From the NCBI RefSeq assembly GCF_054482525.1, contig NZ_CM137006.1: a DNA stretch of 64,000 nt; one strand, 5' to 3'. A program made the position numbers. Of the stretch, positions 1-3,000 are shown piece by piece; positions within the stretch are counted from its first letter, which is position 1, and the number at the start of each line of letters is the position of its first letter.

Positions 1-3000
1 ATTCTGCTGACAATTGCAAACTGCAGATAATTCTCGCCGGTTTTCGCCTTATCCATGGCCGGGATGGCCTTGACATTCACCCAGAACAAACTTTCCCTGT
101 CTTCCGGCATCTGTCCGTTTGTGGCATCAATAATTCTCAGGGTATTCTCTTTCTTTCCCTGCATGGAAAATAACGGAGGAGTAATTACAAACCTGGCATC
201 CTTTTTTCCTTCAGCATTTTCAATCCATGACTGAATAAGGTAACTACTTTTATCATCATTATTTGTTACCGCCAGTTGTACCTGTTTTTGCCCTTCAGGG
301 TAAATCACACGGGTGGCACCCAGAGCAACCCCGGCATAGCTCTGCGGAATATAAAAAAAGACTAAAAATGATGCCAGAACGGCCCATATACGCATGTGCT
401 TCATCATGTTATTAACAGCCTTAATTAAATGGCGTTATATCTGCCAGTTACAGATAGGTCAGAGAAAACCATACCTGTCCATTTGCCTTTCCCCCGGTGA
501 CGGGATAATGTGTGGCCTTATACCTCGCCTGCATATGCAGTTTCATATCTCCGCGGGTAAGATGCACCCAGTTCTCCGGAGGCTGATTAAGTTTTACCAG
601 CTCTCCGCTTTCATTAAATAAAGCGATAGCGATTCCGTCTGAAGCATCATTCTCCTCATCCACCGACAGCAACTCCGGCTCGTGAATATCTGACACGCCA
701 TAAAAGGAAATCCCCACCCGCTGACTGACGACAGTGCTGCAGTCCTGAAGGTGAATATCAAAGCCCACAGAGTCCCCATACTCACCGGCGGCGTGAAATC
801 GATTGCTGCTGAGTTGCCCCATATCCACAGTCATCTGCCTGTCTGACAGGGCAAGACTGCATGCTTCAGCAATTATTTTTCCCTGGAAGCGCATGTTTCC
901 TCCCGGAAGCATGACATGCCAGTGGTTTCCGGCCAGTGCAGCGGGAGACAGCAAAAATAACATTATTGCCATTTTCGATATTTTCATTAATCTCACACCC
1001 GCATGGATAAAAACAGCCCTCCCTGGCCGGGTATATATCCGTTACACTGTTCTGATATTACTGGTACTGAACTTTAAAGGTGGCGTCGGCATTGGCAATA
1101 CCAGCAGTGGCCTGTCCGGTTGCATAATAGCGAGCCTGGAACGGAATTTTGTTAGTGCCATCAGTCAATGTATATTCGGATGCTGCATCTGAATTCAATT
1201 CTACAGGCTGACCTTTAGAATCTAAAATTTGGATCCCTACATTTGTTGCAGCACCTGAAGCAGAGTTTTGCAATGCAAGAACATTTGTTTTCCCTGTGAC
1301 AGGGGTCCCCGAAAATATAATTTTTGCACTTTGGGTTGGGCCGGTAGTTAAATCACAGTCATCCAGTTGAATGGTAAAACCAACAGAACCACTAGTTTTT
1401 CCATCACTCCCTAATGTGGCGCTTCGCACTTGGCCAAGCAAAACCGTCTGATCTACTGAGTTCATATTTACAGCACATGCAGCATTAACCACTTCACCCT
1501 TAAAATGAACTGTACCACCATTAACCGTGGTGGCAGCAGACGCATTTGTCGCAACACCCAGGGTCAGGGCTGAAAATACAGCCATGGAGATGAATTTTAA
1601 CTTCATATTTAATTCCTGTTTTTAATTGAACTACGCACACCGTATCTGTCATCACAACAGATACAATCAATATCCCGAACTACGGGAATCTTTTTTTCAG
1701 GAGAACTTCATAAATGCAATGTGAGAAATACACTCAGGCAGCATTTATGACATTATCTCCCGATAATATTTTCCGGATAACCGACAGGAATCTTCTCTAT
1801 AGATAAGATTCCCTGGATGATAAGCTATGGGTTAGTGTTCCTGTCTCCACACCGAATGCTTTAGCAAAAGCAGAGAAGCTGAAAGCATACCTCGTTGATA
1901 ACACCCGTACTCTCATTTGACTACAGGCTTATATTTCTCGCGTATTATGTATTGCCCCGGCGTTTTTTATTGTCCGTATTTTACAGGGAAGCAGCTTCAG
2001 CTATAGCTGATACACTATCAGTATAATAAGGAGCAAGTCTGGCAACGAGGACATTCAACCTGGTAAGGCGCCCAAGCGTTGTACTGAAATATCCATTATT
2101 CATCTGGTATTTCTCGCAGACATCTTTACGGGAATGACCACTGACCAGATAATCCTTCATAGCGAGAATAACTCTGTCACTGTGAATAGAGGAAATACCT
2201 ATCAGTAAAAAAAATTGTTCTTCAGACATGGAGCCGGATGACAGCGCGCTCTCACGTAATTTTAGTAAAAAAGCATCCCCTCCCCGGGTAATAACTTCAT
2301 GCTGTGCCATTCGATACTCCCCACCCCGCCACCTACAGGGCTGCCTTAATATTCATCCCCCATACAGGAGGGCCTGGCTCCTTAAGATATATTTAGTTTT
2401 TTATGTTGTAAACATGTATTTTGACGATCTTTTGATCTGTAAAGCTGTTTATTTTTAGGGTTATATCTTGCAGTGGATTGGTGCCTTAGTGATTAATGCT
2501 GTATAAGAATGAATATTCAGTATAAAAGATCGTTAAAATCGTTTTTTGCAACGTTCCTTACCATTGAAAAAACTATAAAAATAATGTGATAGAAATCCAA
2601 TCGTGAATATGTTTCGCATATTAAGTAAATACACCAAATACAATATAAAAACATGATAGTCACATTTGAATTGCCAAAAACAAGTCAGCCACTTATTATC
2701 CTTTTGCTTATATAGAGAGGATGATGATATGCAGAATGAAATAATGGGTTTTCTGAGCAGACATAATGGAGGGAAAACCGCAGAAATTGCGGAGGCGCTG
2801 GCGGTAACGGATTATCAGGCACGCTATTACCTGTTATTACTGGAAAAAGCAGGTATGGTTCAGCGCTCACCATTAAGACGGGGCATGGCAACATACTGGT
2901 TTCTGAAAGGAGAAAAGCAGGTGGGACAAAACTGTTCTTCCACAACTTAATAGCTTAATCTGTGGGCATGCTTCACTGAAACAGATAAAAGTTATATCAG

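Follow-up and report, generated by a model that had tools for sequence, protein, structure and literature searches.

An S/F1C fimbrial phase-variation switch related to pap, with an additional GATC site, on a uropathogenic Escherichia coli island

The DNA analysed here is a 64-kb stretch of an Escherichia coli genome (contig NZ_CM137006.1), which we refer to as the window. At its left end, between a PapB-family gene and a PapI/FaeA-family gene, lies an AT-rich intergenic region of 418 bp (2311-2728, 33% GC). We found that this region is the already described phase-variation switch of the S/F1C (sfa/foc) fimbriae of uropathogenic E. coli (UPEC), a close relative of the pap switch. We put at about 0.93 the probability that it is the cis-regulatory switch of an S/F1C chaperone-usher operon on a UPEC pathogenicity island, most likely working as published for pap and sfa.

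Identity and anatomy of the regulatory region

To place the region, window positions 1900-3000 were used as a megablast query against a collection of 5,426 complete E. coli genomes. Full-length matches were obtained in 253 of them, the best being UPEC 26-1 (99.9% identity). When the intergenic region 2311-2728 was searched on its own, these 253 genomes again matched, at an identity of 95% or above; IHE3034, which carries sfaII, is among them. Eight S/F1C loci were then compared, namely that of the window and those of UPEC 26-1, P4, strain 317, IHE3034, isolate 127, UPEC_U013 and Nissle 1917. Intergenic identity to sfaI, sfaII and the other loci compared was 96.9-99.8%: the regulatory region is 99.8% identical to that of UPEC 26-1 and 97.6% identical to sfaII of IHE3034, and 415 of its 418 positions match foc of Nissle 1917. 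Moreover, the PapB-family protein of the window, SfaB, is identical at 109/109 residues to SfaB of the sfaI strains compared, and in UPEC 26-1 RefSeq names both regulators S/F1C fimbrial major subunit operon transcriptional regulators (the equivalents of sfaC and sfaB). The near-identical intergenic DNA and the identical SfaB show the locus to be the regulatory region of sfa/foc (the sfaC-sfaB or focI-focB intergenic switch) and not a mere look-alike of pap. The initial annotation had named sfa as a comparison; the locus proves to be a member of sfa/foc.

With the other sfa/foc loci, the window has in common SfaB, three GATC positions, and the downstream sfaD and chaperone genes. It differs from them in its major pilin variant (72-81% identical), in PapI-like residues of SfaC, in a minority C at 2413 beside the -35 hexamer of the predicted sfaB promoter, and in the DNA past ~3290, which is the flank usual after papI and not the usual sfa flank.

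The two regulatory genes diverge from the region, and the PapI-like and PapB-like character first ascribed to them was confirmed by Pfam. On the minus strand, sfaB/focB (1981-2310), the first gene of the fimbrial transcript, encodes a PapB-family regulator (PapB, PF03333, E = 6.8e-37); on the plus strand, sfaC (2729-2950) encodes a PapI/FaeA-family co-regulator of 73 residues, counted from the ATG at 2729 (FaeA/PapI, PF04703, E = 1.4e-29). NCBIfam gave no model for either regulator. SfaB is identical to PapB at 84/104 residues (81%), while SfaC is identical to PapI at 65/73 (89%) and to other SfaC proteins at 68-69/73. RefSeq models of sfaC begin farther upstream, at a TTG at 2666. We consider the ATG at 2729 the likelier start, because the TTG precedes the predicted sfaC promoter (2671-2699) and a GAGAGGA ribosome-binding site accompanies the ATG. 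The gap between the two genes had been given as 2311-2725; its start stands, whereas its end lies three bases farther on, at 2728.

Three GATC tetramers are present in the intergenic region, at 2426-2429, 2434-2437 and 2528-2531. The first lies in a promoter-proximal box, ACGATCTTTT (2424-2433, plus strand), homologous to GATCprox in Lrp site 2 of pap, and the last in a promoter-distal box, again ACGATCTTTT (2524-2533, minus strand), homologous to GATCdist in Lrp site 5 of pap. As had been claimed, these two sites are 102 bp apart (2528 - 2426), and the boxes are exact inverted decamers whose likeness extends past the decamer itself (ATTTTGACGATCTTTTGATCTG versus ATTTTAACGATCTTTTATACTG).

GATC is a short word, and its co-occurrence in AT-rich intergenic DNA could be fortuitous and of no regulatory meaning. 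However, the exact decamer has only these two copies in the whole window, whereas ~0.12 copies are expected per 64 kb (an exact 10-mer, both strands, uniform composition assumed). Two inverted copies in a single 418-bp gap, at the spacing typical of the family, are therefore not a product of chance. The same inverted boxes, 102 bp apart, recur in the other PapI/PapB-type operons compared, i.e., two pap loci, one afa/dra locus and two plasmid-borne PapI/PapB operons. Given the decamer count and this recurrence across the family, a chance origin was rejected, its probability being negligible.

Promoters were located by a consensus scan, such that all start positions given here are predictions. 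The predicted sfaB(A) promoter (2384-2412, minus strand) consists of a -35 hexamer TTTACA (2412-2407), a 17-nucleotide spacer and a -10 hexamer TATCTT (2389-2384), with an inferred start at ~2377. The proximal box lies 14 bp upstream of this -35 hexamer, and the centres of the proximal, additional and distal GATCs fall at -50.5, -58.5 and -152.5, respectively, from the predicted start. The predicted sfaC promoter (2671-2699, plus strand) reads TTGCCA, a 17-nucleotide spacer and TATTAT, with 10/12 consensus matches, which would put the sfaC start at ~2706. A pattern search also identified a CRP-like site, TGTGATAGAAATCCAA (2585-2600, plus strand), centred 215.5 bp upstream of the start predicted for sfaB. 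The CAP/CRP site of pap sits at -215.5 as well, between the distal box and papI, and this agreement supports the sfaB promoter assignment, albeit with a start that is itself predicted.

Conservation with pap and proposed operation of the switch

We next aligned the regulatory region of the window with those of two pap loci and two more loci of the S/F1C type. Once the boxes, the CRP half-site and the promoter elements are set aside, pap and sfa have diverged strongly in their intergenic DNA, and blastn aligns a single 51-base stretch (86%). By contrast, conservation is unbroken over the stretch that holds the predicted -35 and the proximal box (TTTAGTTTTTTATGTTGTAAA...ACGATCTTTT), over the distal box (ATAAAAGATCGT), over the TGTGAT half-site of the CRP-like site, which is invariant between pap and sfa, and over the TATTAT -10 hexamer upstream of papI/sfaC. 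The -35 hexamer and spacer of the sfaB promoter are likewise conserved. In pap as in the window, divergent papI/papB-type genes ~400-420 bp apart enclose the inverted boxes. Unlike the window, pap has structural genes of another fimbrial type and lacks the GATC at +8 relative to the proximal one.

Among the features that mark a Pap-type region, the window has divergent PapI- and PapB-family genes, a gap of ~400 bp, a PapB-like gene placed first with a pilin gene downstream, two GATCs 102-103 bp apart in inverted ACGATC boxes, and a CRP-like site far upstream. The Pap-type Dam/Lrp architecture, as known from pap and sfa, had been proposed for this region from the outset, and is now supported by the pap alignment, by near-identity to annotated S/F1C regions and by the published phase variation of sfa.

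A separate observation concerns the pap regulatory region of APEC O1 (1799-2229 of that locus), in which the proximal GATC is changed to AATC and a 27-bp expansion of 9-bp AGCAAACAC repeats lies between the CRP site and papI. In the pap model, a proximal site that cannot be methylated would be expected to change the behaviour of the switch or to lock it.

Phase variation of sfa depends on Lrp, on Dam methylation of the promoter GATCs and on the PapI homologue SfaC, in parallel to pap (PMC12388093, PMC4217179, PMC9820224, PMC9602443); the source cited for it, as relayed in these papers, is van der Woude and Low (1994). While the anatomy described above is read directly from the DNA, we infer how binding and methylation proceed from other members of the family and from what is published on sfa. 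In the OFF state, cooperative binding of Lrp around the proximal box (2426) would overlap the sfaB promoter and block transcription, shielding GATC 2426 (and, most simply, 2434 too) from Dam, with the distal GATC 2528 methylated. After replication, SfaC would raise the affinity of Lrp for the ACGATC-containing distal box, such that Lrp may shift there and protect the distal GATC. In the resulting ON state, the exposed proximal GATC would be methylated by Dam, keeping Lrp off the promoter, and CRP with cyclic AMP, bound ~215 bp upstream, would promote the sfaB-sfaA transcript. SfaB, the PapB homologue, would then stimulate sfaC, creating a positive feedback that stabilises the ON state.

Several points limit this account. 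The sfaB transcription start was predicted by the consensus scan and not mapped. In the family, each GATC is surrounded by three Lrp sites, and the proximal set overlaps the main promoter. Matches to the Lrp motif GN2-3TTT occur at 2396, 2416, 2426 and 2444 (plus strand) and at 2525, 2535 and 2567 (minus strand); so degenerate a motif carries little information at 33% GC, and single Lrp sites cannot be placed by it. Directly upstream of the predicted -35 hexamer, position 2413 is polymorphic (C/T), with T in most S/F1C loci and in pap, and the window has the minority C. Finally, SfaC of the window is changed relative to the common SfaC at 4-5 of its 73 residues (E41A, M63K, A65V and S68N, and G14V, which differs from two sfaI strains only). 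Nothing in the sequence contradicts the switch explanation.

The additional GATC beside the proximal box

The third GATC (2434-2437) lies 8 bp from the proximal site (2434 - 2426), on the sfaC side, where the window reads TTTTGATCTG and pap reads TTTTAACC; at the corresponding place the distal box reads ATAC. The initial annotation had placed it correctly and called it unusual. This holds in relation to pap, afa/dra and the two other PapI/PapB operons compared, in none of which a GATC was found 8 bp from the proximal site, but not within S/F1C, where it occupies the same position in 8/8 loci. Moreover, 247 E. coli records have the 40-mer that contains it (2409-2448) with no more than one mismatch (in one record the hit spans 37/40 bases), and 79 records, including Nissle 1917, have it exactly. 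Across six other aligned S/F1C loci, the sole difference inside this 40-mer is the C/T at 2413, which leaves the GATC intact. Its presence in all eight loci and its near-constant context in the 247 records mark the additional GATC, in these comparisons, as a trait of the S/F1C lineage and not a peculiarity of the window.

Such constancy raises the question of a three-site switch, in which the GATC at 2434 would serve as a third functional target of methylation, altering the logic or the rates of switching relative to pap. A second methyl mark could block the return of Lrp to the promoter, or, once replication has passed, two hemimethylated GATCs so close together could draw in factors that act independently of SfaC, SeqA being one example. 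The site is located within the expected proximal Lrp region, and a third GATC is used by relatives: pef of Salmonella and clp/CS31A and fae/K88 of E. coli have PapI/PapB-type regulators and at least three GATC sites in their regulatory regions, a regulatory function has been described for the third GATC, and the PapI homologue can have a negative effect. In contrast to these systems, the third site here is only 8 bp from the proximal one.

Yet the constancy of the site is weak evidence of function, because the S/F1C regulatory regions are 97-100% identical overall, and the constancy of one tetramer in such DNA is almost no sign of selection. The additional GATC also lacks the ACGATC context, which is common to every family box compared, all the functional ones included. 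Furthermore, foc of Nissle 1917 has a fourth GATC at the equivalent of 2658, near the predicted sfaC promoter, produced by an AG-to-GA change at 2658/2659, indicating that incidental GATCs do arise in this region. None of the papers accessible for this analysis mentions the additional GATC or gives it a role.

Weighing these points, we regard a functional third target as improbable, and a large effect of the additional GATC on switching as unlikely. In the switch that we favour, which works as in pap with two GATC boxes, the additional GATC would lie inside the region expected under Lrp in the OFF state and, most simply, would share the methylation fate of the proximal site. Were the three-site alternative true, the mark at 2434 might adjust the rates of switching, or how heritable the ON state is, in a way that departs from pap; methylation at both sites might make the proximal region exclude Lrp more strongly, or a hemimethylated pair might be bound briefly after replication. 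S/F1C and P fimbriae would then switch differently in strains that have both.

The fimbrial operon and its island

The operon controlled by the predicted sfaB promoter had been described as running off the window, with only regulators, pilins and the start of the chaperone gene present, and this is indeed the case. After sfaB come, all on the minus strand, a major pilin gene of the S/F1C family (1058-1606; Pfam Fimbrial, E = 2.4e-29), a gene for an sfaD-type minor fimbrial subunit (448-987; Pfam Fimbrial, PF00419; 178/179 residues identical to SfaD of Nissle 1917) and the first 135 codons of the sfaE/focC chaperone gene (3-407; 135/135 identical to the N-terminus of SfaE/FocC of Nissle 1917), the rest lying past the window edge. 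There the operon would be expected to continue as in the collinear operon of UPEC 26-1, in which sfaD is followed by sfaE/focC, sfaF/focD (usher), sfaG/focF, focG, focH, sfaY and papX.

The major pilin matches no named serotype among FocA (138/180 residues, 77%), SfaA-II (145/180, 81%) and SfaA-I (129/180, 72%). It is identical in UPEC 26-1 and P4, UPEC_U013 shares its protein accession (WP_000768214.1), and RefSeq names it simply 'fimbrial protein'. To judge by these identities, it is an antigenic variant distinct from FocA, SfaA-I and SfaA-II, and has no bearing on the switch.

The window is collinear with UPEC 26-1 to ~53.1 kb (14003-53106 included), and the collinear island of that strain carries a second chaperone-usher operon, cnf1, hlyCABD, a two-component system, fecIRABCDE and several insertion sequence (IS) elements. 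In the window, the second, unnamed chaperone-usher operon includes a 359-residue fimbrial protein (6620-7699) and an usher (7696-10335). Sliding identity divides the DNA around sfaC into a part that is sfa-specific, left of ~2740, a part common to sfa and pap islands (2740-3290), and a part beyond 3290 that is specific to pap islands; the likeness to pap islands was followed rightwards to ~12000. In hundreds of genomes, papI is followed by the DNA that lies here to the right of ~3290. In isolate 127 (NZ_HG994850.1), a pap operon adjoins the same open reading frames of 122 and 69 residues and the same second fimbrial operon, and the S/F1C operon of the window occupies the place of the pap operon in related hly-cnf1 islands. 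The simplest reading is that recombination within the papI/sfaC homology put the S/F1C operon in the place of a pap operon on this island. SfaC is consistent with such a swap: its C-terminal residues are PapI-like, positions 41, 63 and 68 have residues that PapI proteins also carry (neither PapI compared has V65), and it looks like a chimeric regulator.

Several RNA-related matches were noted in the neighbourhood. The stretch common to sfa and pap islands holds a match to the Rfam family AS-pc02 (RF02876, 'Antisense to pHK01_099'; 3101-3279, plus strand; 63 bits against a gathering score of 40), ~150 nucleotides downstream of sfaC; near 3143-3180 it includes a hairpin resembling a terminator and, after it, a run of T. 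Farther right, a strong match to isrC (RF01387; 5836-5958, minus strand; 135 bits) lies at the 5' end of an IS3-family element (4777-5990), which adjoins a truncated LuxR-family gene (4412-4780). The target of the small RNA PapR in papI is +74 to +96 (PMC4546395). The stretch of sfaC that matches this target (window 2779-2838) is 100% identical to papI, such that PapR, which is encoded elsewhere, could in principle also act on this sfaC. A nearby small RNA as a part of the switch was rejected, given that PapR is encoded outside the pap island, and that AS-pc02, found downstream of sfaC, is not known to be connected with the switch.

The history of the locus bears on a further alternative, namely that the switch is intact but silent or locked in this strain, whether by H-NS silencing, by the chimeric SfaC or by cross-repression of the PapB/PapX type. 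The PapI-like C-terminus of SfaC and the apparent move of the operon into a pap-type island position could be taken in this sense, and since the closest genomes have two to three places matching the query, pap-type regions included, cross-talk is possible. However, the cis elements and both regulators are all intact, the substituted SfaC residues at positions 41, 63 and 68 occur in functional PapI proteins, and the identical arrangement is present in several clinical isolates. We therefore consider a silent or locked switch very unlikely, and favour a working one.

Beyond annotation, the importance of the finding is little. Once named as an S/F1C switch, the region identifies what lies at the window's left end as an adhesin operon subject to phase variation, borne on a UPEC island with cnf1, hlyCABD and fec. 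An S/F1C operon in the position of pap, if it arose as proposed, illustrates the exchange of whole adhesin operons between islands through homologous papI/sfaC regions.

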